Assembly: GCA_945861415.1 (NCBI GenBank)
Contig: CAMAUV010000001.1
Span: 121,194-185,193, forward strand
From: Akkermansia muciniphila
GTDB lineage: Bacteria > Verrucomicrobiota > Verrucomicrobiia > Verrucomicrobiales > V1-33
Direction of reading: 5' to 3'
Length of the DNA: 64,000 bases
Part shown: positions 2,460-51,200 of the stretch, one piece after another
Layout: every line of letters begins with the position of its first letter
Numbering within the stretch: position 1 is the first letter of the stretch
Made by a program: the position numbers and the translations under genes
The notes under the pieces: generated by a model
What the model was told of the DNA's origin: nothing
Database searches by the model: none
What the model saw: the letters and a program-made list of their open reading frames with translations, nothing else

Positions 2460-3042
2460 AATGAGGCTGATCCGCTTGCGGCGAAACCAACCAACTAATC
2501 ACTGTTTCGCTACACGTTGATTTCATTTCAGCTGCCAGATTCGCGTTCCATGAACCGATTCTCCACATCGAGCATCGGTTGTCACGACCGACGGGGGAAA
2601 CGAAGTCGGCTTAACTGCGTCGGTCCGACACACGACCGGAGCAGTTTGCAAAGATCCGTTTTCTAGCGTGGGGTATGGGTCGTTGTTAGAATGGCGACCA
2701 TTGAGAGTCTGGATCGGATCCCGGCTCATACCATCTGGGAAAAGTCGGCTTGTACGGGCTGCCAACGTACCCATGCAAACGCTGGGCGGCAGCGTGCGAG
2801 CCATAGGCGAGCATGAGAATGAAGGCAACCGAGTTGAGGTGGAGACGATTGCTCAAGATATGGATGCGCGGCATAATCGGCATGAAACGATGACGGACGC
2901 GGCGGCGCCACAATTGCAATACCCCCATCCGCCGCCTTCCCGCTGTCAGACGCTAGCGGTATCCGGATTCCTCGCCTGGGAGGTGCAAATTGTGGGCCTC
3001 CGCGTGAGCTCGGTTATATTTCTGAACTGAGAGAGAAACGCC

Positions 3043-4170
3043 ATGAATTCACTCGAGTCGAGACGCCAGTTCATCGGCAATGGCATCGTCGCCGGCGCAG
3101 GTGCGTTGGGAGTCGCGATCATCAGCGGCAAACGTGGGGTGGCGGATGATGAGCGACGAACAGAACTAGGCTCCGGGATAAAGAGAGTCATTCTTGAAAG
3201 TGCCGATAGGATTTATACCTCGAGAGGCAAAGAGCTGCAGTATAACTCCTTCACGGACATCGACGTCTGGCGCGGCAAATACTACGTCGTCTTCCGCCAG
3301 GCCGTGAAGCACCACCCGTCAAGGAGCCGATTGGTCTTGCTGGAGTCTACCGACCTCAAAAAGTGGGACGAAAAGGTCGTACTCGACCGACCCGAGCTGG
3401 ACGATCGGGATCCGAAGTTGCTATCGACTCCCGACCGGCTGATCCTCTACACCACGCCGTTTCCGCACGACACCGAGGTCCTGTACACCGAAGACGGCAC
3501 CCATTGGAGCGAGCCGGCCGACGCCTATTCGGACGATGTCGGTGATCAGTGCTGGCGGCCCAAGGCCTGGATGGGCAGCTACTACATGGCCTGCGATTAC
3601 GACAACGATCGCGTCGATCTACTAAAGTCCGACGACGGTTTGAGCTGGAGATACGCATCGACGATTATGCGCGGCAGCAAGTACGCTCCGACCGAAACAG
3701 CCATCACCTTCCTCAAGGATGGCCGGTGCCTGGCGGTGACACGGGGCAACACGAACAGCACCTGCGATCCGGTGTTTTCGATAGCGAACCCGCCTTACAC
3801 ATCGTGGTCGTATGGCCATGGCGACAAGTATTTTTCCGGACCGGCAGTAGAACGAATCGGAGATTCGGTCATCGTGGTTTCGAGAACGGTAATCGGCCCG
3901 GAAAAAGGACAGTGGGACTTTCCACGTGACCCTGAGATCCCAGACGACGATGGTCAACGCACGGCAGTTCACCGATTCGACGTGGAGACGATGTCTCTCG
4001 GACCGCCGATTCTGCTGCTGACAGAGACGAGCGGCGACAGCTCTTATCCCGGCATCCTGCCGATCGGCGAGGGCCGTGCGCTGATATCGTGGCACTACGG
4101 CAACCGTCATTGGGGTACGCCCGGCCCGAACGACATCTGGCTCGCTCAGATAAGAATTGTTGAGCCGTAA
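3043..4170 (+). CDS. Tat-signal BNR/Asp-box beta-propeller protein (sialidase-like fold)
   Basis: The N-terminal SRRQFIGNGIVAGAGALGVA is a twin-arginine signal. There are three Asp-box-like motifs (STDLKKW, TEDGTHW, SDDGLSW). It has an ATG start after a purine-rich leader. Confidence 0.75.
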   Translation: MNSLESRRQFIGNGIVAGAGALGVAIISGKRGVADDERRTELGSGIKRVILESADRIYTSRGKELQYNSFTDIDVWRGKYYVVFRQAVKHHPSRSRLVLLESTDLKKWDEKVVLDRPELDDRDPKLLSTPDRLILYTTPFPHDTEVLYTEDGTHWSEPADAYSDDVGDQCWRPKAWMGSYYMACDYDNDRVDLLKSDDGLSWRYASTIMRGSKYAPTETAITFLKDGRCLAVTRGNTNSTCDPVFSIANPPYTSWSYGHGDKYFSGPAVERIGDSVIVVSRTVIGPEKGQWDFPRDPEIPDDDGQRTAVHRFDVETMSLGPPILLLTETSGDSSYPGILPIGEGRALISWHYGNRHWGTPGPNDIWLAQIRIVEP

Positions 4171-4489
4171 CTTCTTCGGGGGAACTGCTCGGATAAACTC
4201 GATCATCAAAAGAAACACACCTCCAATGGCGAAGACCAAAAACAGGACGAGACCAAGGACGACCGAGACCGGTTTGGCGTACGGCCTTTTCAATCGAAAA
4301 ATCGGGAAGCTGATGGCGGCACTCAGCGACGCTGCCGCAGCAGCGATGATCGCCGGAGTCAGGAGAAATTCCATGAGATTCCTTCAGTCATTGAATTGGT
4401 GAAACACAGAGTCACGGAGGTCACACAGGAAGAGGCCAAACGAAACTCTCTGTGTGCTTCGTGCCTCTGAGTACGTAGCGATGCACTGC

Positions 4490-4786
4490 TCATTCCGCCG
4501 GCTCCTGGTTTGATTGATTGCTTTCCCGCAGCCGTCTTCGCCAGGCATCGATGGCCAGTACAACGCCGATCACCAGGCAGGCCAGCCATTGCAGGGCCGG
4601 CACGATGAACAGTTCCATCCTCTGGTGGCGGTGCCGCATGTAGTCCGGCCCGCGGGGACTTTCGGCCAGCGCCGTGCGGTAGCCGCTCGCTTCAGCCGCC
4701 AGCGATAGCATCGCCAAGCACTCCTCGGCTGCATTGGCCGCAGTCCGGTCCTGGCTTGGGTGGTTAGGTTTGGGAGACCAGTTCAC
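4490..4786 (-). CDS. Hypothetical small protein with a C-terminal transmembrane helix
   Basis: A 98-codon ORF in an otherwise unassigned gap. It has a hydrophobic stretch LQWLACLVIGVVLAI followed by a basic tail. I recognise no family. Confidence 0.25.
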   Translation of the reverse strand: MNWSPKPNHPSQDRTAANAAEECLAMLSLAAEASGYRTALAESPRGPDYMRHRHQRMELFIVPALQWLACLVIGVVLAIDAWRRRLRESNQSNQEPAE

Positions 4787-5090
4787 CTGCGTCTATTGCG
4801 ATTGGCGTGGAGAAGTAGAAGGGCGATCTGTGCATCGACCAACTCCATGCCGCAGGCGGGGCTGCAACGATCAGAGACACTACACCACATAACTCAAATA
4901 CCAAACCCGCCCGAACCCGGCCGGTGAGAGGTTTTTCGGCGTCATGGGCACTACCGTGATTAAGCTACGGATCTATCCGGGCGTAGTCCTCAATATGGAG
5001 GAAATGATGCCCGCATCCCCGTGCGAGGGCAAATTCGCTAGGTAAGAAATTTCAGTTCCGGAACCGTCGATCCGCCAGGTGCACTACCTT

Positions 5091-5257
5091 GCATTCTCTT
5101 AATACATGAAAGCCGGGCCGGGGCTGCTCCTTATAACTGGTGTGCATTCCCGATCATGAAGTATTTTTCTCTCATCACTTTCACCAGAGTTGCAATCATT
5201 CGCATTCGTTGTGCATTCGTATCACGACTCGACCGTCGAGAAGGGCGCGTAGGTTGA
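5091..5257 (+). pseudogene. Relic copy of the promoter-proximal region and first ~18 codons of the PSCyt/DUF1553 gene found intact at 48286
   Basis: Positions 5091-5208 align by eye with 48221-48338, with a 33/33 identical core (5139-5171 versus 48269-48301). The ATG at 5156 sits at the same offset as the ATG at 48286. The reading frame MKYFSLITFTRVAII... stops after 33 codons (TGA 5255-5257). Confidence 0.6.
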
Positions 5258-39389: not shown

Positions 39390-40322
39390 ATGAAACATAC
39401 CATCAAATTCATCCCCCTCCTGCTCGGCGCGCTGGCCGTCACGACCGCCATCGCTGAGGAGCCGAAGAAAGACGATCCCCAACCCATCCTCGACCGCCTG
39501 CCGAAAGAGGCCATCATCGAGAGGGACATCGTCTATGCCACCAATGGCGACCGCCAGATGCTGCTCGACGTCTATCGTCTCCCGTCGGACAAGCCGCTGC
39601 CGCTGGTCATCTGGATTTATGGCGGGGCCTGGGACTGGGGCTCGAAGGATCGCTCGAATCCGATCATCGGTCTCGTGGCGCGCGGCTATGCCGTTTCGTC
39701 GATCAGCTACACCAAGAGCCGGGAGGAAATCTTTCCCGCCGTGATCAACGACTGTCGCGCGGCGGTGAGTTTTCTGCGCTTCAACGCCGCTCGCTACAAT
39801 CTCGATCCCAACCGCTTTGGCGCGGCTGGCGAATCATCCGGCGGACATCTGACGGCCCTGCTGGGGACGGTGGGCGACACGGAGGAGTTCACCAACCACC
39901 CGATCACGAAAAAAGCCTCGTCCGCCCTGCAAGCCGTCAGCCCATGGTGCGGTCCGACGGACTTTTTGAAACTCAATGACGTCAAGTGCGCCCAGGATTA
40001 TTCCAGGAAACATTCAGCACCTTCCCGCCTGCTGGGCGCACCGATCAAGGAAGTCCCCGAAAAATGTCGGCAGGCCAATCCCATCACCTACATCAGCAAG
40101 AGCGACCCGCCATTCTTCATCGTTCACGGCGACCAGGATTTCGCCGTTCCCCTTAACCAAAGCGAGCTGCTCCACGCGGCGCTTCAGCAGGCCGGCGTGC
40201 CCTCGGCTCTTCATGTGGTCAAAGGCGGCGACCACGGCTTTTCCAAAGTTGAAACAACCAGAGACCAGGTCGTCGATAAGGTCGCGGAATTTTTCGATGG
40301 GCAGTTTAAGAAGGAGAAATAG
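39390..40322 (+). CDS. Alpha/beta-hydrolase esterase, secreted
   Basis: It has a signal peptide, an oxyanion-type IWIYGGAW, the nucleophile elbow GESSGGH, and the C-terminal FFIVHGDQDFAV ... GGDHGF. Confidence 0.85.
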   Translation: MKHTIKFIPLLLGALAVTTAIAEEPKKDDPQPILDRLPKEAIIERDIVYATNGDRQMLLDVYRLPSDKPLPLVIWIYGGAWDWGSKDRSNPIIGLVARGYAVSSISYTKSREEIFPAVINDCRAAVSFLRFNAARYNLDPNRFGAAGESSGGHLTALLGTVGDTEEFTNHPITKKASSALQAVSPWCGPTDFLKLNDVKCAQDYSRKHSAPSRLLGAPIKEVPEKCRQANPITYISKSDPPFFIVHGDQDFAVPLNQSELLHAALQQAGVPSALHVVKGGDHGFSKVETTRDQVVDKVAEFFDGQFKKEK

Positions 40323-40329
40323 AGTTAGG

Positions 40330-40348
40330 ATTCAAGATTCGAACTTCG
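40330..40348. repeat. Right copy of the 19-nt direct repeat flanking the esterase gene
   Basis: See 39361-39379. It is followed by tandem CACTTCT units (40355-40372). Confidence 0.7.
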
Positions 40349-40387
40349 AGTTACTCACTTCTCACTTCTCACCTCGCCTCCCCGGTC

Positions 40388-41413
40388 CTACTTCTTCGCC
40401 TTCCTAGCATAAGCCGCCACTTCCCTGGCTGCTCTCGTTTCCTCTCCCGGCTTGCCGAGAAAACCGAGATCAGTGAACCACTCGATGTAGCGGTCATACC
40501 ACTTGGCGTAAGGTATGGCATGGGGCGCGGTGTTCCGTTTCACCCCATGCCCGCCGCGTCCGTAGATGTGCATCTCCAAGTTCGGCACATCCTCCTTCAG
40601 CATCGCGTTAAAATAGTCCACCGCCCAGATCGCGTGCGCTTTGTCGCCCGTCCCCGCACACGCGAGGAAGCTCGGCGGCACATTCCCCGGGATCGCTGTC
40701 TCCGGTGCCTGGGTGAACGGTGTCGGTCCCGGATAAATGATGCCAACGAAGTCCGGACGGGCCGAAAACTTTGAGAGCTGATCATTCGGATCATTGTTCT
40801 TCCTAGCAAACTCCTCGAAGAGCAACGCCGCCGGTGCAGCCAGCTCCGCCCCCGCCGAGAATCCGATGATGCCAATCTTGTTCGGGTCCAGTTCCCATTC
40901 CGCGGCTTTTGAGCGGACGAGACGAATGGCCTGCTGCGCATCATTGACCGCATCCCTAGCCGCGTCGTAACCGTCCCCGGCCAGACGATTGCGCAGGATG
41001 AAGGTCGAGATTCCGAGCTTGTCGTTCGGTTCCACGTAATCCGTGCCATCGGATCCCACCCACAAAATAGTGTGGCCTCCGCCGGGAATGAGGATCATGG
41101 TCGCGCCATTCAGCGTGCGGTCCTTCGCGAGATGCACCTCGAGGGACGGATTGTGGACATTGACCACTGTGCGAATGATCGCGCCCTTGCCGCCGGCGTG
41201 AGTGTTGTATTTCTCCGCCTCGTGGATGCGCTCTCTCTTGAGCAGCGGCGAGTCCGGTGGATACAGCGGGAGGATCGTGCCCCCGGCCTTGATCACCTGC
41301 GGCTGGAATGGGCCGTCGGCGGGCTTTCTCTCCTCCACGGGCGCAGCCGTCTGTGCGACCACCAGTCCGGTGAACGCAGTCAGAGCAACGAAAGTCAGTA
41401 AAGTCGTTTTCAT
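40388..41413 (-). CDS. Alpha/beta-hydrolase esterase, secreted
   Basis: A start at ATG 41413 gives the signal peptide MKTTLLTFVALTAFTGLVVAQ. It has MILIPGGGH and the nucleophile elbow GFSAGAE. The supplied ORF (to 41707) extends through a repeat element and into the upstream gene. Confidence 0.85.
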   Translation of the reverse strand: MKTTLLTFVALTAFTGLVVAQTAAPVEERKPADGPFQPQVIKAGGTILPLYPPDSPLLKRERIHEAEKYNTHAGGKGAIIRTVVNVHNPSLEVHLAKDRTLNGATMILIPGGGHTILWVGSDGTDYVEPNDKLGISTFILRNRLAGDGYDAARDAVNDAQQAIRLVRSKAAEWELDPNKIGIIGFSAGAELAAPAALLFEEFARKNNDPNDQLSKFSARPDFVGIIYPGPTPFTQAPETAIPGNVPPSFLACAGTGDKAHAIWAVDYFNAMLKEDVPNLEMHIYGRGGHGVKRNTAPHAIPYAKWYDRYIEWFTDLGFLGKPGEETRAAREVAAYARKAKK

Positions 41414-41431
41414 ATCTGCCAGTAAATTCCA

Positions 41432-41490
41432 TTCGCGCCCGCCGCACCGTAGACGATCACAACCGGGACGGGCGTCGGGGAGTGAGGGGG
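41432..41490 (-). repeat. Copy A of a 55-75-nt conserved element (sense: CACTCCCCGACGCCCGTCCC..TG(A)(Y)CGT.T.CGGTGCGGCGGGCGCGAA)
   Basis: Aligned by eye with copies at 42815-42870, 46869-46927 and 47103-47178. It ends 18 nt before the start codon at 41413 and begins about 25 nt after the stop of the upstream gene. Confidence 0.8.
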
Positions 41491-41514
41491 TCTGGTGTCG
41501 TGTCGGGCTTGCGG

Positions 41515-42783
41515 CTATCCCGGCGTCTTCACGCGGATGTTGTGAAAGCGCACTTCCTTCCACGGCCAGTGCGCCTGGAGGCCGATGCCTCCGCTGTCCG
41601 GAAACTTCGGATCGACCTCCTGAATCGGGTAGCGGTCCACCGTCATGCGTCCATTGAGCCAGACGGAGACGACGTTGTTTTCCACGCGCACGTCGAGGTA
41701 GTTCCATTGGCCGGGCGGATTATCCATCCGCACGGCTGGACGCACGGCCTTGCCGAGATCCTGGATGTTCTTCTGCGCGGGCACATACGTATGCAACACA
41801 CCCCACAGGCCACTGCCCCACTTGTGCTCCCAAATGTCCGCCTGCCAAGGATGCACGCCGCGCAGATAGATGCCGGAGTTGATGTTGCCCGGGTCGGGAT
41901 CGGCGAACATGAACTCGAGGCGCAGGCGATAATTCGCGAAGTCCTTCTTCCTCGTCACGATGCTCGGCCCCGGTCCCTTGAAGGTCCACTGCAAGCCCTC
42001 GCGCACCCAGTGCTGCTCCATCGGGCCGTTGCCGCCGAAGCCGGGATAGACCTCCCATTCGGCGACATCCATAAGGCTGCGGTAGCTGAGTTCCCGGACG
42101 CGCAGGTTGCGCAATTCGAGCGGGCCCTGGAACACGCGGAAGCCGAGGTAGCCGCATCGGGGGACGTAGTCATTGCACGTCCACGCCTGCTGGCCGTTGC
42201 AGGTGAGTGTGATGACGTTCTTCTCGGCCAGCACTCGCCAGGTGTTCCATTCGCCGACCGGCTTCTGCAATGCCGGCACGGCCTTCCGCGCCTTGCCCTG
42301 GCCCCCGATCATCCCCGTGGCACTGGCGTTGTATTCGCCCTCGCTGCGGTCATTCTCCTGCGGGCCGCCTTCGAGTCCCTTCGCGATGCGCATCGGTGCC
42401 GCATCGAGCAGGCGTCCGCTGTGGACGTAGAAGTCCGCGTCATAGCTCTCCGAGGTCACGCGCCACTCAAACTCAAACTCAAACGCTTCGTATTCCCACT
42501 GCGACGCAAGGATGGCCTTCGCATCGCCCGCGCCGATGATGACGCCGTTCTCGACCTTCCATGCCGCGGGCGGCTGTTTGGCCATCGCGGCACTGTCGCC
42601 AAATCGCCATCCGGTGAAATCACGACCATTGAAGAGCGAAACGAACTCGCCGGATGCCGTCGCGACTGGTTTTGCCCCCTCATCGGCAGCCGAAGCCGGA
42701 TGGAGGGGCCAGGCGAGCGCCAGAAGCGCAATGAGGTTGATGGAACTGCGGAGGAAGTGGCGGCGGGTGAGTTGGGTGGTCAT
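41515..42783 (-). CDS. Tat-signal protein with two DUF1080 (3-keto-disaccharide hydrolase family) domains
   Basis: The Tat signal is MTTQLTRRHFLRSSINLIALLALA. It has two repeats of the LFNGRDFTGWRF...WKVENGVIIG / ...GGIGLQAHW..VRFHNIRVK pattern typical of DUF1080. Confidence 0.85.
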   Translation of the reverse strand: MTTQLTRRHFLRSSINLIALLALAWPLHPASAADEGAKPVATASGEFVSLFNGRDFTGWRFGDSAAMAKQPPAAWKVENGVIIGAGDAKAILASQWEYEAFEFEFEWRVTSESYDADFYVHSGRLLDAAPMRIAKGLEGGPQENDRSEGEYNASATGMIGGQGKARKAVPALQKPVGEWNTWRVLAEKNVITLTCNGQQAWTCNDYVPRCGYLGFRVFQGPLELRNLRVRELSYRSLMDVAEWEVYPGFGGNGPMEQHWVREGLQWTFKGPGPSIVTRKKDFANYRLRLEFMFADPDPGNINSGIYLRGVHPWQADIWEHKWGSGLWGVLHTYVPAQKNIQDLGKAVRPAVRMDNPPGQWNYLDVRVENNVVSVWLNGRMTVDRYPIQEVDPKFPDSGGIGLQAHWPWKEVRFHNIRVKTPG

Positions 42784-42814
42784 AAACTGCTGGGAATTTT
42801 CTGCTCGGGATTTG

Positions 42815-42870
42815 CTTTCGCGCCCGCCGCACCGGAAACGGTCAGAACGGGGACGGGCGTCGGGGAGTGA
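42815..42870 (-). repeat. Copy B of the conserved element
   Basis: The plus strand reads ctttcgcgcccgccgcaccggaaacggtcagaacggggacgggcgtcggggagtga. It ends 33 nt before the start codon at 42783. Confidence 0.8.
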
Positions 42871-42966
42871 AGTTTGTTGTCGAGTGCCATGCGGGGGAGG
42901 TCATTTATTTTTGCTTCGCTGCTGAGTTGCTTCGCGCTCCCCTTCTCCAAACCGGAGCTATCCCGC

Positions 42967-44373
42967 TCAGACGTTGGCGAGGCGGCCGGTGGAGTCGCCG
43001 AAGCGTTCGAGAGTTTTCAATCCGACGCGGTCGGCCATGCTGAGGAAGAGGTTGGTGACGGGCTGGGTGCCGTGATCCACATGGCGGCCGGGCTTGAGGG
43101 TGCCGCCGGCGCCGCCGGCGAGGAGGATGGGGAGATTGGCGTGGGTGTGGAGGTTGCCGTCGGCGCAACCGCTGCCGTAGAGGATCTGGGAGTTGTGGAG
43201 CAGCGAGTGGCCGTCGAGGTCGGGCGTGTCGGCCATCTTTTTGAGAAACTTGGCGAACTGCGCGGCATACCAGTGCTCGATCTTGGCGACTTTGGCCACG
43301 AGTTCGGGCTTGTTCTGGTGGTGGGAAATGTCGTGGTGGCCTTCGGGGACGCCGATTTCGCTGAAGGAGCGGTTCGTGCCGTCGGCGGCGGTCATGAAGC
43401 TGATGACGCGGGTGGAGTCGGTCTGGAAGGCGAGCAGCATCAAGTCGTACATGAGTCCGACGTATTCGCCGTATTCGATGGGGATGCCGGCGGGTGTGTC
43501 CACGCCGGGATCTTTTGGCAGGCCGAGGCGCTCGGCTTTCTGGATGCGGACTTCGAGTTCGCGCACGCCGGTAAGGTATTGGTCGAGTTTCTCCTGATCG
43601 CGCGCGCTGAGCTTGGTCTTCATGGCGCGGGCGTCGTCGCGGATAAAGTCGAGGATGGACCGCTGCTGCTGCTGGCGTGCGAGGAGCAATGCTTCGCGCT
43701 GGCCGGCGGTGCCGGTGCCAAAGAGCCGCTCGAAGAGGAGGCGTGGGTTGCCCTCGGTCGAGAGGGGCGTGTTCGTCGCGGTCCAAGAGAGGTGGTATTG
43801 GTAGGCGCAGGCGTAGCGGTCGTCGCAGTATATTTTGCGGATCGACAGTGAGTCGGAGGCGATCTGGAGGGAGGGGAAACGGGTGAGGTGCCCGATCTCG
43901 CGCGCGATGAGCTGGTCGATGGAGATGCCGTTGCGGATGTCTTTCTCGCTTTTGCGCAGGCGGGTGCCGGTGAGAAAGGTGCCGGTGGCGCGCGCGTGAT
44001 CGCCGCCGCCGTCATTGCCGCTCTCGTGGACGGCTTCGGCGGCCTGATGCCCCAGCCCGCGGATCACCTGCAAGTGCTGCTTGCTGGCTGCGAGTGGTTC
44101 CAGCGTGGGGCTGAGGGCGAAATCACTACCGGTAGTCGCGGGCCACCACGAGGCGGGGATGGCGCCATTGGGAAAATAGACAAACGCCGTGCGGAGCGGG
44201 CGGCCGGTGGCGGTCACGCCGAGCTGGCCGGCGCTGGCTTCCGCGCCCAGCAGGCGGGTTGGGAAAAGGGACTCCATCGCGGGCAGTGCGAGCGAGACTC
44301 CGAAGCCGCGGAGAAAACTGCGGCGGCTGACATCTAGGTGCTGCTGGGCGGCGCGGGTTGCGGGCGTGGTCAT
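42967..44373 (-). CDS. DUF1552 domain protein (Tat signal), partner of the upstream PSD-type protein
   Basis: A start at ATG 44373 gives MTTPATRAAQQHLDVSRRSFLRGFGVSLALPAMESL, the typical DUF1552 N-terminus. It lies 19 nt downstream of the stop of the 822-aa gene. Confidence 0.88.
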   Translation of the reverse strand: MTTPATRAAQQHLDVSRRSFLRGFGVSLALPAMESLFPTRLLGAEASAGQLGVTATGRPLRTAFVYFPNGAIPASWWPATTGSDFALSPTLEPLAASKQHLQVIRGLGHQAAEAVHESGNDGGGDHARATGTFLTGTRLRKSEKDIRNGISIDQLIAREIGHLTRFPSLQIASDSLSIRKIYCDDRYACAYQYHLSWTATNTPLSTEGNPRLLFERLFGTGTAGQREALLLARQQQQRSILDFIRDDARAMKTKLSARDQEKLDQYLTGVRELEVRIQKAERLGLPKDPGVDTPAGIPIEYGEYVGLMYDLMLLAFQTDSTRVISFMTAADGTNRSFSEIGVPEGHHDISHHQNKPELVAKVAKIEHWYAAQFAKFLKKMADTPDLDGHSLLHNSQILYGSGCADGNLHTHANLPILLAGGAGGTLKPGRHVDHGTQPVTNLFLSMADRVGLKTLERFGDSTGRLANV

Positions 44374-44392
44374 CGGGATTGGTGGTGTGGAG

Positions 44393-46861
44393 TTATTGCG
44401 GGGCGACGTTAGCCGGTGGGCCGCCCGCGTCACCCGGTTTGTGGCGGCGTTTTTGAAAAGGAGCGGATTCGATGATGCCAAACAGCAGGGCGTGAAACCG
44501 GCCCTCCTCCTTTTGGATGCGGGCAACGATGGCGTCCACGGTGGTGATGTCGGAGGGTTCGAGGCCGCGGCCGATCGCGTAGGTGAGCATTTTTTCCGTC
44601 AGGCAACGGTGGAAATCCTCGCGGCGCTCGACGGCGAGCACGCGCTTCAGCTCGCGCATGTCGGCAAACTTCTCACCGGTGACGAGCTTGCCGGAAGGGT
44701 CGATCTTCTGGCTGTGCTCCTCCTGGCGAAACAACCCGAGGGCGTTGAAATTTTCCAGCGCCAGCCCGAGGGGATCCATGCGGTCGTGGCAGGAGGCGCA
44801 GGCGGCTTTCTCGCGATGGACGGCGAGCGATTCGCGCAGGGTCGGCTGGCGGTCGGTGGTGGTGGCGGTTTTGGCGGCCACGTCCAGGTCGGGAATGTCG
44901 GGCGGCGGCGGCGGCACGGGTGTGCCGAGGATGTTGTTGAGGACAAACAGGCCGCGTTTCACGGGCGAGGTGCGGGTGGGGTTCGAGGTCACGGCCAACA
45001 CCGTGCCGTGGGTGAGGACGCCGCCGCGCGGGTGGTCCGGCGGGAGCTGCACGAGCCGCAGTTCATCGCCGGCGATGTCGGGGATGCCGTAGTGCGAGGC
45101 GAGGCGGGCGTTGAGGAAGGTGTAGTTGCTGTCGATGAACTCGGTGAGCGGGTGATTCTCCCGCACGATGTGGGCGAAGTAGGCCTCGGTCTCCTGCCGC
45201 ATCGCCAGCCGCAGCTCCGGCGTGAGAGCGCCCGGCGGGCCGCCGCGACCGCCCTTCACGGGCACACCGGGCACGGCCTCGCGCGCGAGCACCGCTTGTG
45301 CATTGATGGTCACGCCGGGGATCTCGCGGGCTCCCAGCCATTGACCGGCGAAGTTTGCCACCAGCGCGGCGGAACGCGCATCGGCCAGCATCCGCCGCAC
45401 CTGCGCGTCCAGCCCGGCGCGCAGCTTGCCCGCGGCCGCGAGCGTGAGCAGTTCCTCGTCCGGCATCGTGGACCAGAGGAAATACGAGAGCCGCGAAGCC
45501 AGCGCAAACTCGTCCACCAGCGGGTCGGTATCGCCGGGCTTGAGCGCCTCGACGCCCTCGTCGCGAAACAGAAAACGCGGTGAGGCGAGCACCGCCACCA
45601 TCGCGTGGGCGATGCCGGCCTCGAAAGTCTGGCCGGGAGTTTTGTCCACGCTTTGCGCCAGCCCGGCCAGCCGCTCGAGCGTGGCCTCCTCCACCGGATG
45701 CCGGTAGGCCCGGGCCGCAAATTTGCCGAGCAGTTCACGCGCGTAGGCCGCGCGCTCCTTCGGGTCGGACGGGACGGACTCGGGGAAAAATTTCGTATAA
45801 TCTTTCGGCGCGATCCAGTGCTCAGGCTCCAGCGGCCCGCGCACCGTCAGTCCCTCGATCCGCAGACGCATTGCGCGCGTTTGCGGCTGGGCCGGCTCCA
45901 GCGGTACGACCTCAAAGGTCAGCACGTTCGCGCCCGCCTTCAGCACGCGTTCGAACTCCAGGGCAAACAGCCGGTTGTATTCGCTGCTGAACTCGCGCTC
46001 GAGCACCACGTCGCCGTCCACCTTGATGATGAAACGGCACTTGTTGTAATCGAAAATGTCGTCCGGGCCGCGATCCGTCGCCGTGACGTTGAGCGTGAGG
46101 CGGTGCTTCCCGGATCTCTCCACCTGGAGCGCGTGAGTGGGCGCAGCCGCTTTGTAGTATGACAGGATGAGCTGGCCCGCCTTGCTTATCATCGAGGGCT
46201 CGTTTCCGGTGGACAGCGCGCGGGCGTCGAGCTGCTTTTCCATCGGGATGCGCGGAACCGTGGGCACTGCCTGCTCCACGATGGCGCGGGCAGCGTTCAC
46301 ATATTTCTCCAGCAGCAACGGCGACATCGTCAGCGCATCCGCGATGTTGTCGAAGCCGAAGCCCGAGTCGTCGCTCGGAAATTCTTTCGTCGTATTGAAG
46401 TCCACGCCAATCAGGTCGCGGATGGTGTTGCGATACTCGGCGCGGTTGAGGCGGCGAAGGGTCACGCGGCCCGGATCTGGCCGGGCCGGGTCGAGGCCGA
46501 GCGCGCCGGCCTTGATCCAGTGGACGAGGCGCGCGGCGTCATCCGCCGGGAGGCGCGGCCCGCGGGCGGGCATCAGGCCGGCCTGCACGTTTTTCAGCAC
46601 AGCCACCCAGACGTCGGTCCTGGCGAGCATTTCCTTGTCCGGGCCGAGCTGGTCAAAGGCGAGCTTGCCTTTGCTCTCGCCGTCGCCGTGACAGTCGTAG
46701 CAATGCTTCTCCAGCAGCGGTTTGATGTTCTTGTGAAAATCCTCCGCCACCGCCGCCGCCGGAGCGGTCCCCGCGGCGGCCGGGCTCTCCGCCCGCGCCA
46801 AGCCGACACACGCGCAGACGAACACGGAAAACGAAAGGAGGCCCCGGAAAATCACTGCCAT
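44393..46861 (-). CDS. PSCyt3/PSD-type giant (DUF1587/DUF1592/DUF1595/DUF1588/DUF1585 architecture)
   Basis: A start at ATG 46861 gives the signal peptide MAVIFRGLLSFSVFVCACVGLARA. It has CYDCHGDGESKGK, RLNRAEYRNTIRDLIGVDF, TSPVKRGLFVLNNILG and CASCHDRMDPLGLALENF. The supplied ORF start at 47068 runs through repeat copy C. Confidence 0.88.
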   Translation of the reverse strand: MAVIFRGLLSFSVFVCACVGLARAESPAAAGTAPAAAVAEDFHKNIKPLLEKHCYDCHGDGESKGKLAFDQLGPDKEMLARTDVWVAVLKNVQAGLMPARGPRLPADDAARLVHWIKAGALGLDPARPDPGRVTLRRLNRAEYRNTIRDLIGVDFNTTKEFPSDDSGFGFDNIADALTMSPLLLEKYVNAARAIVEQAVPTVPRIPMEKQLDARALSTGNEPSMISKAGQLILSYYKAAAPTHALQVERSGKHRLTLNVTATDRGPDDIFDYNKCRFIIKVDGDVVLEREFSSEYNRLFALEFERVLKAGANVLTFEVVPLEPAQPQTRAMRLRIEGLTVRGPLEPEHWIAPKDYTKFFPESVPSDPKERAAYARELLGKFAARAYRHPVEEATLERLAGLAQSVDKTPGQTFEAGIAHAMVAVLASPRFLFRDEGVEALKPGDTDPLVDEFALASRLSYFLWSTMPDEELLTLAAAGKLRAGLDAQVRRMLADARSAALVANFAGQWLGAREIPGVTINAQAVLAREAVPGVPVKGGRGGPPGALTPELRLAMRQETEAYFAHIVRENHPLTEFIDSNYTFLNARLASHYGIPDIAGDELRLVQLPPDHPRGGVLTHGTVLAVTSNPTRTSPVKRGLFVLNNILGTPVPPPPPDIPDLDVAAKTATTTDRQPTLRESLAVHREKAACASCHDRMDPLGLALENFNALGLFRQEEHSQKIDPSGKLVTGEKFADMRELKRVLAVERREDFHRCLTEKMLTYAIGRGLEPSDITTVDAIVARIQKEEGRFHALLFGIIESAPFQKRRHKPGDAGGPPANVAPQ

Positions 46862-46868
46862 GAAATTG

Positions 46869-46927
46869 CTTTCGCGCGCGCCGCACCGGAAACGGTCAGA
46901 AATGGGACGGGCACCGGGGAGTGCGGG
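46869..46927 (-). repeat. Copy C of the conserved element
   Basis: The plus strand reads ctttcgcgcgcgccgcaccggaaacggtcagaaatgggacgggcaccggggagtgcggg. It ends 9 nt before the start codon at 46861. Confidence 0.8.
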
Positions 46928-47102
46928 CTGAACGATGATGAAAGAAGAATCAGTGAAGCGTTCCGCGCTGCTTTGAAAGTAGGACTTGCGGAGGCGAGGC
47001 TCGGTTGTGGCGAGATTCATGCGTTGCGGTGAAGTGCGCGAACATGGCCGTCGACTCTGCTTTGCCAAGCACTATTCGGAAGCGGTTTTCTCTGCCGCAG
47101 TG

Positions 47103-47178
47103 CTTTCGCGCCCGCCGCGCCGGAAACGGTCAGAGCGGAAACGGTCGGAGCGGGGTCGGGCGTCGGGGAGTGAGAGGG
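47103..47178 (-). repeat. Copy D of the conserved element (orphan, with an internal 15-nt duplication)
   Basis: The plus strand reads ctttcgcgcccgccgcgcc-ggaaacggtcagagc-ggaaacggtcggagc-ggggtcgggcgtcggggagtgagaggg. It lies about 240 nt upstream of copy C, with no gene start directly after it. Confidence 0.75.
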
Positions 47179-47454
47179 TCTGATACACCTGAAACGGCGA
47201 ATTGATGTGCATGTCAATCCGCGTCATTCAGTTCTTCGTCTTCTTGAACCTAGGCAGCACCGGCGCGCCGCCGGGATACGGAACGGGATCAAAGGTCTCG
47301 CCGCGCCTGCTAGGCACGCGGGAGTCGTCCGTCGCCGTCAACCCGGCGATCAGTTATTCGCTGAGTTTCTTGAGGGTGTCGGCATACTCGAGATTGTCAG
47401 CCGCGCTGTTTAGCTGGCCCGGGTCTTTGCAGGAGTCTAAAATTTCTCAACTGC

Positions 47455-47487
47455 CATGAAACTGCTTTCTGGACGCTCCGCGGTTCA
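47455..47487. repeat. 33-nt direct repeat, copy a (catgaaactgctttctggacgctccgcggttca)
   Basis: It is 29/33 identical to 47809-47841. The two copies bracket the SGNH fragment ORF. Confidence 0.7.
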
Positions 47488-47493
47488 TCGAAG

Positions 47494-47805
47494 TTATCTG
47501 GTGATCGGAAGAGCTTTTGTGACGGCATCCACGCATTCATCGCTGAGGATCCGATAGGCAGCCGCAGTCCAGTGGAACTTGTCCTTGCCGCCGCGCGCGA
47601 GTTCCAGCTTGTCCACGAGTAGCGCGTATAAATTGCTCACCGGCAGGCCGCACTCGGCCATGACTTTCGCGGCCATGTAGTTGTGCTCGATGGTGGTGCC
47701 GTTGATGACGGGATCGAGTTTCTTCACCTCACCTTCGAGCAGAACGGGCGTGGTGCTGGCCCACAAGAGGCGTGCACTGGTCTGCTTCATGCGCGTGATG
47801 AGCAT
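47494..47805 (-). pseudogene. C-terminal half of an SGNH/GDSL hydrolase (N-terminal catalytic half missing)
   Basis: The 103 codons begin MLITRMKQTSARLLWASTTPV...NLYALLV...FHWTAAAYRILSDECV. These match blocks III-V of PVC-type SGNH hydrolases as I recall them. There is no GDS block and no signal peptide. Confidence 0.5.
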
Positions 47806-47808
47806 TGA

Positions 47809-47841
47809 CAGGAAATTACTTTCTGGACGCTCCGTGGTTCA
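47809..47841. repeat. 33-nt direct repeat, copy b (caggaaattactttctggacgctccgtggttca)
   Basis: See 47455-47487. Confidence 0.7.
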
Positions 47842-48007
47842 GCGGCTTGATGTAGGTGGCGAGATCGATTGAACGGTTGGCCGTGGGCAGCATTTCGCGC
47901 GACGCAGGATGCCCGGCCGCCGGAGCGGTGGCAGACACCGCTGCCAGGGCTAGGGAAAGGGAGAGGTGCGGGAAATCGAGATGCATGGAGAGATGAAAGA
48001 TTGGCAT
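47816..48007 (-). pseudogene. Signal-peptide-bearing 63-codon stub, possibly the N-terminal remnant of the disrupted hydrolase gene
   Basis: MPIFHLSMHLDFPHLSLSLALAAVSATAPAAG looks like a signal peptide. The ORF ends inside repeat copy b, immediately upstream of the SGNH fragment. Confidence 0.3.
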
Positions 48008-48285
48008 GATTGCTCCGGTTGCGCAACATGGACCACCGAGCGGGTTGCGCAGGCAGACCAAGCCAACCGCCAGCCCCGCAGTGAACTGCGACAAGCCCGC
48101 CAATTCAAGGAAGTGACCACCACGGCGATGTCAAGGAAGGCATGGTCACTGGAAGCATCGCGTCTCAACTTCTGGTTGTTTCAGCCCCCGAAACAGTTTA
48201 TCTGCCAGACAAACTTTCCGGCATTCTCTCAATACTTGAAAGTCAGGCCTAGGCAGATGCGTGCCACAGGTGTGCATTCCCGATC

Positions 48286-51200
48286 ATGAAGTATTTTTCT
48301 CCCATCGCTTTCACTAGGGCCGCAATCATCAGCCTCGGGTGCGCCGCGTTCCTTTCTTTACCCCGTTTGCAGGCAGATGAGGCTCCGGTGCAGCCTTCGA
48401 CGAATGATCTGGCGTTCTTCGAGACCAAAGTCCGCCCGGTATTGGCTGGGAAATGTTATGAGTGCCATTCGGCTGCGGCGCAGCAGAAAGGAAAGCTCAA
48501 GGCGGGGCTCTATGTTGACAGCCGGGAGGGATTGATGGCTGGTGGGGATAGCGGCCCCGCATTGCTGCCCGGAAAACCTCAGGAAAGCCTGCTCATCAAG
48601 GTCCTCAGGCATGAGATCAAAGACGCGGAAATGCCTCCCAAAGGCAAGCTGGATGACAGCGCCATTGCTGACCTCGCGAAGTGGATTGAAATGGGGGCAC
48701 CGGATCCCCGGGTGGCGGCGGTAACGGTCGCCGGTAGCAGGCGGATCATCGATGCAGTCGAGGGCAGAAAATGGTGGGCGTTTCAGCCTCTGGTCCAGCC
48801 TCCCGTGCCCGATGTGAAAAATAAGTCCCTTGTCAGGACTCCGGTAGATGCCTTCATCCTCGCAAAGCAGGAGGCTGCAGGTCTAGTGGCAAATGCCACC
48901 GCCAGTCCGGAGAAACTGCTGCGCCGCGCGACCTTCGGCCTCACCGGCCTTGCCCCAACGATGGAGGAACGTGAGGCATTCCTCAAGGACACCTCGCCAG
49001 ACGCCTTTGCCCGGCTCATCGACCGGCTGCTGGGAAGCCCGCGTTATGGCGAGCGCTGGGGGCGTCACTGGCTGGATGTGGTACGCTTCGCTGAGAGCGG
49101 CGGCTATGAGTTCGATGGCTTCCGCCCGGGGGCTTATCACTATCGCGATTGGGTCATCAGGGCCTTCAATGCGGACATGCCCTTTGACGAATTCGTCAGG
49201 ATGCAGCTCGCCGGAGACAAACTCAAACCTGATGAATTTGATGGTGCGGCGGCGGTGGGGTTCCTCGTGGCGGGTCCGTATCCGGGCCAGACCACGGTGA
49301 AGACTGAGGAGAAAATCCGCTATGACCAGCTGGACGACATGGTCTCGACCATCGGCAGCGGCATGCTCGGAGTCACCATGGCCTGCGCCCGCTGCCATGA
49401 TCACAAGCATGACCCGCTCTTCCAGCGCGACTATTACGGTATCGCGGCAGCGCTGGCGACGACGGAGCATGACGCCGCGAAACGCAACTCCAGCGGCGCT
49501 GAAACGCAGCACGCGCTGGAGCAGCACAAGCAAGCCGGTGTCTCTCTGGCGGCAGCGCTAAAAAAATACGAGACCGAAGGGTTTTCCCGGCGATTCGAGG
49601 AGTGGCGGAAGACGAGCCTGCCGCAGTTCAGCGCGGCCACGCCATGGCAGATCGTCGATGTGCGCAGTGTTTCCGCCAAAAGTGCCATCCTTGTTTCCGA
49701 CGCCGAAGGCCAGGTGCATTATGCCGGAAACAAAACGAACGACGACCTTTACACCGTGAAGGCGGTGACCTTTCAGAAAGGCGTGCGGGCCTTCCGGCTG
49801 GATGCCTTGAGTGATTCTTCGCTGCCGGCCAAAGGTCCGGGCTTGTCGGATAACGGAAACTTTGTGCTCGCGGATCTCAAAATAATTGCCCGGCCGCTCG
49901 ACACAAAAAACAACGCGCCGCCTGTACCTGTAAAACTCAAGCCTGTAGCGGCAACCTTTGAACAGGCCGGCTATCCACTCGCTTCCAGTCTGGATGCGAA
50001 TGACACCTCCGGCTGGGCGGTGGCTCCGGAAATGGGCAAGGATCACGCCGCAGTTTTTGCCGTCGATGGCGCGACCGTTGGCTTTGACGGAGGCACGGAG
50101 TTCGAGTTCCAGTTGCGCTTCACCGGCTACTTCGGCCTTGGCAGGATGGGGCTCGCCTTCTGCAATGGCGCTGAAGAGGCGAAGCTGGGAGATGCTAAGG
50201 AATTGCAGCATTTGCGGGAAATCCAGACGCTGGCTGCGGTCAGCGACGGCCTGACCCTAGAAGCAAATCGCCTAGGACTGCTGCGCTGGTTCAGCCACTT
50301 TGATGCGCACACGAAAGCGTTGCTTGATGCCGTGTCGCAGCATGAACGCAAACGACCGGTGCCGGAGCCGACGGAGATCTATACCACGCGGGACGGTGGC
50401 CGGGATGTCCATTTCCTGCGCCGCGGAGAAGTGGACCGCAAGGAGGGCAGGATGAGCCCGGGATTTATCCAGGTGCTCATGCCTTCCGGAGATGCAGAGA
50501 AGCGATGGACCACGGCCGCAGAACTGGAGAAACCCGCGCCGCATCCCAGAGTAAGTCTGGCGAACTGGATGACGGATTTGGAGGCCGGCGCTGGTTCGCT
50601 TCTGGCACGGGTCATGGTGAACCGTGTTTGGCGACAGCATTTCGGCCGCGGCCTCGTGCCCTCCAGCAACGACTTCGGCTCCCAGGGGGCGAAGCCCGCG
50701 AATCCCGCCCTGCTCGACTGGCTGGCATTGGAACTCATGCGGAATGGCTGGCACCTCAAGCCCATCCACCGGGTTATCATGTCGAGTGCCGTTTACATGC
50801 AGTCGGGTGAGGTGAATCCCGCGAACGTGAGGGCCGATCCTGACAACGATCTGTGGTCGCAGCGTCCCGCCCGCCGGCTCGAGGCGGAAGCTATCCGCGA
50901 CGAACTGCTCCAGATCGGCGGGAAGCTGGATGAGAAAATGTTCGGACCCTCTGAAGCGAACTATGAGAGCGGGCGTCGCAGTGTCTATCTGCGGGTGAAG
51001 CGCAGTGAGCTGATTCCTTTCCTGACGATGTTCGATGCGCCGGAGCCCGCGCAAAGTGTCGGTGACCGCGGAACCACCACCGTGCCGACTCAGGCCCTAG
51101 CCAGCATCAATTCCAATTTCATGTGGGATATCGCAGGGCGGTTGGCTGACCGCGTCCAGGCCACACAACCGGCGAGTATCGAGGTCGCCATTGCCCGGAC

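Follow-up and report, generated by a model that had tools for sequence, protein, structure and literature searches.

Short repeats preceding exported-protein genes of a verrucomicrobial genome are very probably miniature derivatives of an IS91-family right end

The window analyzed here is a 64,000-nucleotide (nt) stretch of Akkermansia muciniphila DNA (assembly GCA_945861415.1, contig CAMAUV010000001.1, forward-strand positions 121,194 to 185,193). Between positions 41416 and 47183 it carries four minus-strand copies, A to D, of a short conserved repeat situated close to the start codons of genes for exported proteins. A first-pass annotation, made from the letters of the window alone, had described an element of 55 to 75 nt and had offered three candidate explanations: a shared regulatory RNA in the 5' untranslated region (5'-UTR), a binding site for a dedicated regulator or for an extracytoplasmic function (ECF) sigma factor, or an intergenic repeat resembling the repetitive extragenic palindromic (REP) sequences. 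We conclude that each copy is very probably a miniature, nonautonomous derivative of the right end (the oriIS side) of an IS91-family insertion sequence (IS), of a kind common in Verrucomicrobiota.

Four copies in the window

Reading the minus strand of positions 41300 to 43000 and 46700 to 47400 confirmed that the four copies lie where they had been placed, all in the same orientation, and that the distances given to the start codons were correct within 2 nt. The limits of 55 to 75 nt held less well: the repeat is present within them, but conservation exceeds them at either end: in a flanked alignment it also takes in CAGACCCCCT on the upstream and AATTTCCTGGCAG on the downstream side. The true unit is about 80 nt long (70 to 92 nt in the window) and has sharp ends, YCAGACCCCCTCACTCCCCG ... 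GAAAGCAAATTCCTAGCAG. The source genome (G000) is a 4.66-Mb assembly of 113 contigs with a G+C content of 59.6%. The genome-wide profile search proposed earlier as a check was run with nhmmer, using a profile built from the four copies; it recovered all four at E values of 5e-16 to 7e-13, far beyond chance, and only two more members of the same subfamily (sf1), copy E at C10:90981-91035 and copy F at C19:37128-37181 (C numbers denote contigs of this assembly). These six sf1 copies share 80 to 96% mutual identity. We therefore take the repeat to be real, specific, and about 80 nt long.

Copy A (41416 to 41495, minus strand) is a complete 80-nt sf1 miniature, CCAGACCCCCTCACTCCCC ... GAATGGAATTTACTGGCAG, which ends 2 nt before the ATG (41413) of an esterase or alpha/beta hydrolase gene (40388 to 41413, minus strand; Pfam BD-FAE and Abhydrolase_3) that itself lies outside the element. 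Copy B (42801 to 42872, minus strand), likewise sf1, has lost its first approximately 9 nt (the CAGACCCCC box) or has diverged in them; it ends 17 nt before the ATG (42783) of a DUF1080 (3keto-disac_hyd, 3-keto-disaccharide hydrolase) gene (41515 to 42783, minus strand), which encodes a Tat-type signal peptide and occupies the space between B and A. Directly after the end of B, an extra terminal motif, AAAATTCCCAGCAG, can be read from the sequence (42787 to 42800, minus strand). Copy C (46855 to 46931, minus strand) is an sf1 terminal module whose C-rich box has a deletion of 3 nt; the last bases of the copy contain the ATG (46861) of a PSD/PSCyt gene (44393 to 46861). Together with a DUF1552 gene (42967 to about 44390-44526), the latter forms a pair (42967 to 46861, minus strand) between C and B.

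Homology continues beyond copy C, which forms the tip of a block of about 237 nt, 46855 to 47091. The remainder of this block (46932 to 47091, minus strand) is continuous with copy C and represents an internal noncoding portion of the right end of the IS. It includes a decayed palindrome and -35-like box (AAAACCGCTTCC..GCTTGGCAAAGC) as well as a conserved ATGAATCTCGCC block, and it is homologous to the region downstream of the transposase gene (tnpA) at locus L001 and at other loci (L numbers denote the loci and G numbers the genomes compared here). Copy D (47092 to 47183, minus strand), an sf1 miniature with a 15-nt internal duplication (TCYGACCGTTTCCGS), abuts the longer block head-to-tail about 235 nt upstream of C, in line with the tandem described earlier. 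Locus L062 has the same arrangement, with two copies 246 nt apart.

A 462-amino-acid (aa) open reading frame (ORF) on the plus strand (41482 to 42870), antisense to the DUF1080 gene, spans exactly copy A to copy B, and the TCA in TCACTCC, in reverse complement, supplies its stop codon. The ORF is an antisense artifact of high G+C content and no gene. Elsewhere in the source genome, copy F (locus L002, contig C19) precedes a polysaccharide deacetylase/Rha78A-Ig gene, and the stretch concerned covers L002 positions 2612 to 5238. The deacetylase gene is followed on the same strand by an ECF-type sigma-70 gene (3140 to 3661) and by a 173-aa ORF (2612 to 3133) that has the look of a possible anti-sigma factor without a Pfam match, and a DUF1501-like gene lies upstream.

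A dispersed family with constant termini

The source genome contains 34 miniature copies, which fall into three subfamilies (6 in sf1, 23 in sf2 and 5 in sf3) with identical termini and different interiors. Conserved termini combined with free interiors are what would be expected of cis-acting transposition signals. A BLAST search for the element in 100 relatives gave partial matches in eight genomes. When genome contigs were scanned for the exact core TGACCGTTTNCNNNNNGGNGNNCGCGAAAG, 88 loci with 104 matches were obtained, of which one (L055) was spurious; nearly all lie in metagenome-assembled genomes (MAGs) of Verrucomicrobiota. Record labels of these MAGs include Chthoniobacter(aceae), Verrucomicrobiaceae, Akkermansiaceae, Luteolibacter, Prosthecobacter, Pedosphaera and 'Opitutus'; many of the MAGs come from lakes, and more than 20 loci belong to a single one. 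Set side by side, the instances share the unit YCAGACCCCCTCACTCCCCGACGCCCGTCCCCGTTCTGACCGTTTCCGGTGCGGCGGGCGCGAAAGCAAATTCCTAGCAG, while their flanks are unrelated.

Head-to-tail copies with a period of 80 nt occur at L042, where a solo array (683 to 842) comprises two 80-nt units. A tandem of two 87-nt terminal units is also present at the end of a full-length IS at L111 (about 2690 to 2865, genome G064). Both tandems mirror the D-C arrangement in the window.

The unit is contiguous with the end of an IS91-family element

Elements of the IS91 family encode a Y2 HUH transposase and move by rolling-circle transposition. In a subset of the instances, homology extends much farther upstream, into the 3' end of an ORF that terminates in ...EDGSILVLDFD*. 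In the source genome, the decayed copy E on contig C10 lies about 270 nt downstream of the stop codon of such a frame, a 316-aa ORF (L001, 3830 to 4780) that matches Pfam Y2_Tnp at E = 1.3e-17. Its match to NCBIfam NF033538 ('IS91 family transposase') is limited to positions 146 to 355, and the protein is therefore N-terminally truncated; it is the single transposase found in that genome at E ≤ 1e-10. Searching the 100 relatives with the 316-aa protein uncovered open frames of 494 to 512 aa in G018, G065, G014, G088 and G064. The 497-aa ORF at L107 scores 183.6 bits against the NF033538 equivalog model (cutoff, 125) and contains both Zn_Tnp_IS91 and Y2_Tnp domains.

The full-length copies (L107 to L111 and L132) have a common layout and common terminal boxes downstream of the transposase gene. 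A palindrome, CCGCTGCCAA-N8-TTGGCAACGCGG, lies about 30 nt past the stop codon and is followed by a spacer with a conserved ATGAAY, then by the C-rich box CCCCCCAGACCCCCTCNCTCCCCG and, 35 to 50 nt farther on, by the terminal box GAAAAGCAAATTCCTAKCAG, where homology ceases. At the other end, a palindrome with the form AACTGTTC-N3/4-GAACAGTT stands just before the start codon in L107, L108 and L111. This left-end palindrome differs from the right terminus and contains the classical GTTC, which is found only there. In a Chthoniobacter MAG (L056), a 423-aa transposase ORF with an internal deletion is joined to exactly the end of the subfamily seen in the window. The other interiors also have counterparts: that of sf2 resembles the right ends of L129 and L112, and that of sf3 the right ends of L107 and L113. 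The unit thus continues, without interruption, the sequence that follows an IS91-family transposase gene and constitutes the terminus of the element.

When the 103 instances were mapped on copy E's right end (q denotes the position there), nested size classes emerged. Eighty-four instances, plus three cut by a contig end, belong to an 80-nt class whose homology starts at q491 to q524, mostly at 491 or 492 and within 1 to 2 nt of YCAGACCCCC. Seven form a class of about 247 nt, to which the C block of the window corresponds; they start at q325 to q462, three of them at q325 or q326 and several at the palindrome. The remaining nine are longer and include the 3' end of tnpA, starting inside the gene, in three cases exactly at q276. 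All size classes have the right terminus in common. Copies A, B and D of the window are accordingly the last 70 to 92 nt of the IS, and copy C with its upstream block is the last approximately 237 nt. Of the earlier suggestion of a REP-like intergenic repeat, the dispersed, mobile-element-derived nature stands, but the source is an IS91-family right end and not a REP-type sequence.

Termini and junctions

The two ends of the unit differ: the 5' end, YCAGACCCCCTCAC, and the 3' end, AAATTCCTAGCAG, are not complementary, and comparison of the sequence found no terminal inverted repeats in the unit. Among 29 cleanly delimited junction pairs, a small sample that depends on our own boundary calls, none had a direct repeat of at least 4 nt that could mark a target-site duplication (shuffled mean, 0.03). 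At the 5' junction, Y-C-A-G/T precedes ACCCCC in most copies, and the sequence farther upstream is random. The 3' junction displays a weak preference for Y, C/A and A/G after CAG.

Beyond the 3' junction, many copies continue into (CAGA)n, into CAGC or CAGCAG runs, or into a second terminal motif, AAATTCCNAGCAG. Such repeats are seen at 42787 to 42800 in the window, at C21:60266 and C21:62597 elsewhere in the source genome, and at L053, L068, L070, L075 and L097; they would be compatible with slippage or recurrent nicking of the end. Three sf2 copies (C4:113199-113255, C7:57722-57775 and C37:9166-9220) stop at a common internal position, ..GACGCCACCCGC, each being followed by the same unrelated sequence, GGTAAAGTGGGCCGTCCRATGCATAGRATTTGGATTATTCGGGAT, which looks like a second mobile element inserting at a fixed site inside the mini-element. 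At L071 (minus strand), a second, degenerate copy lies about 74 nt downstream of the first and reads ..PADTRPHSDRFRGGGRGSKFLAV.. inside a 188-aa ORF, an example of how such repeats can end up in predicted proteins through gene calling.

Orientation relative to genes and an outward promoter-like site

The first-pass annotation had placed the element just 5' of genes, and this proved to be a real statistical trend of the family. With gene calls from a crude filter for coding-like ORFs based on G+C content at third codon positions (GC3), 89 of the 101 instances from other genomes fall between genes. We then compared, in a symmetric test, coding-like ORFs that start between -20 and +80 nt of the 3' end on the same strand with those that diverge from the 5' end and start at an equal distance from it. 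The counts were 12 versus 2 for the 34 copies of the source genome (p = 0.013) and 39 versus 15 for 101 copies in other genomes (p = 0.0015), so that, compared with the left end, the right end is found facing a gene start close by 2.6 to 6 times as often; some 60% of copies lack such a neighbor, and not all copies are independent. The bias is explained neither by replication direction (mixed sign of GC skew, 13 versus 21) nor by regional gene orientation (co-oriented coding fraction, 0.52). A right end stands directly before apparently homologous genes both at C65:12635-12702 in the source genome, where it is a solo sf2 copy, and at about 2794 of L110, where it belongs to a full-length IS in G088. 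The encoded N termini read ..IRNILKHLT.. and ..FRNTLKHLAL.., and the right ends come from different lineages; this pair reflects either recurrent insertion at similar sites or an old shared insertion.

A scan for sigma-70-like promoters found no site in either of the two window regions. In the full-length ISs, a conserved outward-facing promoter-like site, TTGGCA-N16/17-TATGCT, is present at L107 334 to 362 (minus strand) and L110 2563 to 2590 (plus strand), where shuffled sequences lead one to expect 0.1 to 0.2 sites, and at the corresponding position of other full-length ISs. It overlaps the 3' arm of the palindrome past the stop codon, and the conserved ATGAAY follows about 30 nt farther on. 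On the opposite strand of L107, the palindrome together with a T run scores as a terminator. The promoter-like site is situated some 210 nt from the end; the 80-nt copies therefore do not include it, and in the C block it has decayed.

It is conceivable, if unlikely, that the mini-element, besides being of transposon origin, is an exapted regulatory module that supplies an outward promoter or a favorable leader and so drives or tunes the next gene. The surplus of copies facing gene starts in both data sets, which replication direction and regional gene orientation leave unexplained, speaks for this, as do the conserved promoter-like site of the full-length ISs and the precedent of the POUT promoters of ISCR1 (PMC6218425). 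Against it, that site falls outside the 80-nt copies, has decayed in the C block and has no equivalent in the window regions, most copies (about 60%) lack a nearby gene start, and the interiors of the three subfamilies differ. A related conjecture, to which we give somewhat less credence still, is that miniature ends are placed nonrandomly, either by strand-specific insertion into single-stranded DNA at transcription starts or by being kept only where they serve as a portable leader or promoter. If true, this would have fixed their orientation within a few bases of start codons and rewired the 5' ends of many verrucomicrobial genes for secreted proteins.

Alternative explanations

The position of the copies just 5' of start codons would also suit a structured cis-regulatory RNA, riboswitch-like or a protein-binding leader, common to the exported-protein genes, and the hairpin proposed in the first-pass annotation (CGCCCG/CGGGCG plus ACCG/CGGU) can indeed be drawn in most sf1 copies. 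The proposed stems never covary, however: RNAalifold, in two runs, gave 10 consensus pairs, none with a compensatory change, and found no structure conserved across IS lineages in the last 80 nt, so the covariation support sought for the element was missing. In the G035 copy, CGGTGCGG is replaced by CACCGAGG, which destroys the inner stem. Folding of eight copies gave z-scores of +0.25 to +1.0 in seven and -0.11 in one, no better than shuffled sequences, and the folds vary between copies. A permissive Rfam scan of 40000 to 49000 (E ≤ 10), the database check that had been suggested, returned nothing relevant at the copies and four chance-level matches elsewhere. The interiors of sf2 and sf3 differ from that of sf1, and the same sequence also ends a transposon and occurs in either orientation relative to genes. 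We regard the structured-RNA explanation as exceedingly improbable and, for practical purposes, refuted. Scarcely more probable is an operator or promoter recognized by a dedicated regulator or ECF sigma factor governing a small regulon of secreted enzymes. Every sf1 copy of the source genome that precedes a gene shares the orientation of that gene, and copy F precedes the polysaccharide deacetylase gene that is followed by the ECF-type sigma gene and the possible anti-sigma ORF. Yet a sigma gene is near only one of the six copies, and F itself is upstream of a different gene. An ECF promoter has an AAC-containing -35 element and a CGT-type -10 element spaced by 16 to 17 nt, and usually stands upstream of the sigma operon itself; by inspection, no motif of the AAC-N16-CGT type is present in the sense orientation, just as the window copies lack a sigma-70-like promoter. 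A private regulon is also hard to reconcile with a sequence that recurs about 100 times in MAGs from many lineages and is also found where a transposase gene ends, with downstream genes that are mutually unrelated in other genomes, or with sharp transposon-like ends, copies in tandem and nested longer forms extending into the transposase gene. An integron attC site, like the ECF promoter, was weighed on the sequence and set aside, since the defining motifs are lacking.

A translated sequence, either an N-terminal extension or a coupled upstream ORF (..QTPSLPDARPxSDRFRCGGRESNF..) ahead of the signal peptides, is about as improbable as a regulator site. One frame is free of stops in all copies and, in the source genome, matches the phase of the downstream ATG in A, B, C, E and F; the 15-nt insert of copy D amounts to five whole codons, copies C, D, E and those of two relatives have ATGs farther upstream in the same frame, and in G007 the stop of the ORF overlaps the next ATG (TGATG). 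In other genomes, however, the phases are distributed 16/9/14, which is near random, and canonical signal peptides begin at the annotated ATGs. In copy B the frame meets a stop 12 codons upstream, and a start codon is lacking. The frame of the terminal box relative to the C-rich box differs between IS lineages (L107 versus sf1), and it is therefore the nucleotide sequence that is conserved, not a peptide. The coding explanation was rejected in view of this mismatch between lineages together with the spread of phases elsewhere and the missing start codon of copy B; the unexplained in-phase pattern in the source genome is probably due to chance.

Origin of the miniatures and implications

If the miniatures arise as envisaged for IS91 and IS801, a transposase supplied in trans would nick at the right terminus, strand transfer would halt early at an internal ter-like YCAG tetranucleotide, and the short products would retain a complete ori end and could move again. 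Early-stopped products of this kind would explain why the 5' boundary is sharp, why the size classes are nested and why copies form head-to-tail arrays, and the junctions of a mobilized mini-element would read YCAG...CCTAGCAG, with no target duplication. We infer that the sf1 copies of the source genome are old and now immobile, since the sole detectable transposase is truncated and these copies are 80 to 96% identical to each other. Their location just upstream of start codons probably reflects where insertions were possible or tolerated, and the elements are most likely traversed by the downstream genes' transcripts as part of the leader.

Several observations weigh against the derivation from an IS91-family right end. 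The classical GTTC/CTTG of the family is not seen beside the right end, the flank offering only a weak Y-M-R preference. To judge by inspection, sf2 and sf3 apparently lack the obvious subterminal palindrome that is typical of known oriIS sequences. No empty site was recovered in genomes of the same genus, in which the gene neighborhood is not conserved; only the DUF1552 gene of the window locus has matches there, at 64 to 76% identity (best per genome, 65 to 73%). The bias toward gene starts, moreover, is not predicted by a purely neutral relic, and the gene calls behind it come from the crude filter described above.

The derivation from an IS91-family end removes a false lead: a conserved motif before exported-protein genes turns out to be transposon derived and not the signature of a riboswitch or a regulon, and the same motif will recur in any motif or noncoding-RNA screen of Verrucomicrobiota genomes. 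It also defines for Verrucomicrobiota the right end, several lineages and a very short (70- to 80-nt), high-copy miniature of an IS91-family element; in the literature that we searched, no earlier description of such an element in this phylum was found. Ends of the IS91/ISCR type can mobilize neighboring DNA and can carry outward promoters, which makes the solo ends candidates for places where DNA is rearranged and expression altered. The orientation bias provides a handle on how HUH rolling-circle elements choose their targets or survive at them, and it might be the one point that repays experiments.

Comparison with known systems

The miniatures resemble REP sequences, the bacterial interspersed mosaic elements (BIMEs) built from them, and the miniature transposable elements with inverted repeats that are called MITEs in being short, dispersed, mostly intergenic and present in many copies per genome. 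REP sequences and BIMEs consist of a short imperfect palindrome that forms a stable hairpin and are associated with a Y1 transposase of the REP-associated tyrosine transposase (RAYT) type, while classical MITEs have terminal inverted repeats and generate a target-site duplication. The units described here have neither of the latter two features, which rules out a classical MITE, and their hairpin lacks significance. The transposase that goes with them belongs to the Y2 IS91 type, as opposed to RAYT or DDE enzymes (no search aimed at RAYT was made).

In IS91-family elements the left end is termed terIS and the right end, downstream of tnpA, oriIS, and the last 82 bp of IS91 together with the adjacent tetranucleotide suffice in cis for transposition (PMC13181058). 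The verrucomicrobial elements agree with IS91 and IS1294 in the position of the right end downstream of tnpA, in a unit of about 80 bp and in having unlike ends (PMC13181058), as well as in the Zn_Tnp_IS91 and Y2_Tnp domains of the transposase and the GTTC within the left-end palindrome. They differ in a longer transposase (about 500 aa), in the lack of GTTC/CTTG beside the right end and in a subterminal palindrome that is not evident in all subfamilies, and their ends have no verifiable sequence similarity to published ones. The oriIS region of ISCR1 carries the outward POUT promoters PCR1-1 and PCR1-2 (PMC6218425). Like it, the region studied here is a noncoding stretch of about 230 to 270 nt downstream of the transposase gene, with a predicted outward sigma-70-like promoter and downstream genes that are often co-oriented; unlike in ISCR1, the predicted promoter-like site falls outside the 80-nt unit, and the neighbors are ordinary secreted or periplasmic enzymes instead of resistance genes.

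The closest parallel is with the IS801 miniatures of 229, 360 and 679 nt found in Pseudomonas syringae by Bardaji et al. in 2011, which share a right terminus, start at a ter-like tetranucleotide and are attributed to one-ended transposition (PMC3189936). Both sets are continuous fragments with a common right terminus and discrete left ends at a short ter-like motif; both lack inverted repeats and target duplications, and both are nonautonomous, the present ones presumably relying, like those of IS801, on an IS91-family transposase in trans. The bounding motif is YCAG-like here and GAAC-like in IS801, and mobility of the present elements is deduced from their structure. The verrucomicrobial units are much shorter (70 to 92 nt), and this short form is by far the commonest, with 84 of 103 instances elsewhere and 34 copies in the source genome. 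The units form three or more subfamilies, each of them similar to another IS lineage's right end, and are spread over MAGs of several named Verrucomicrobiota lineages. The repeat is thus a known kind of object, met here in a new lineage and in an unusually short and abundant form.

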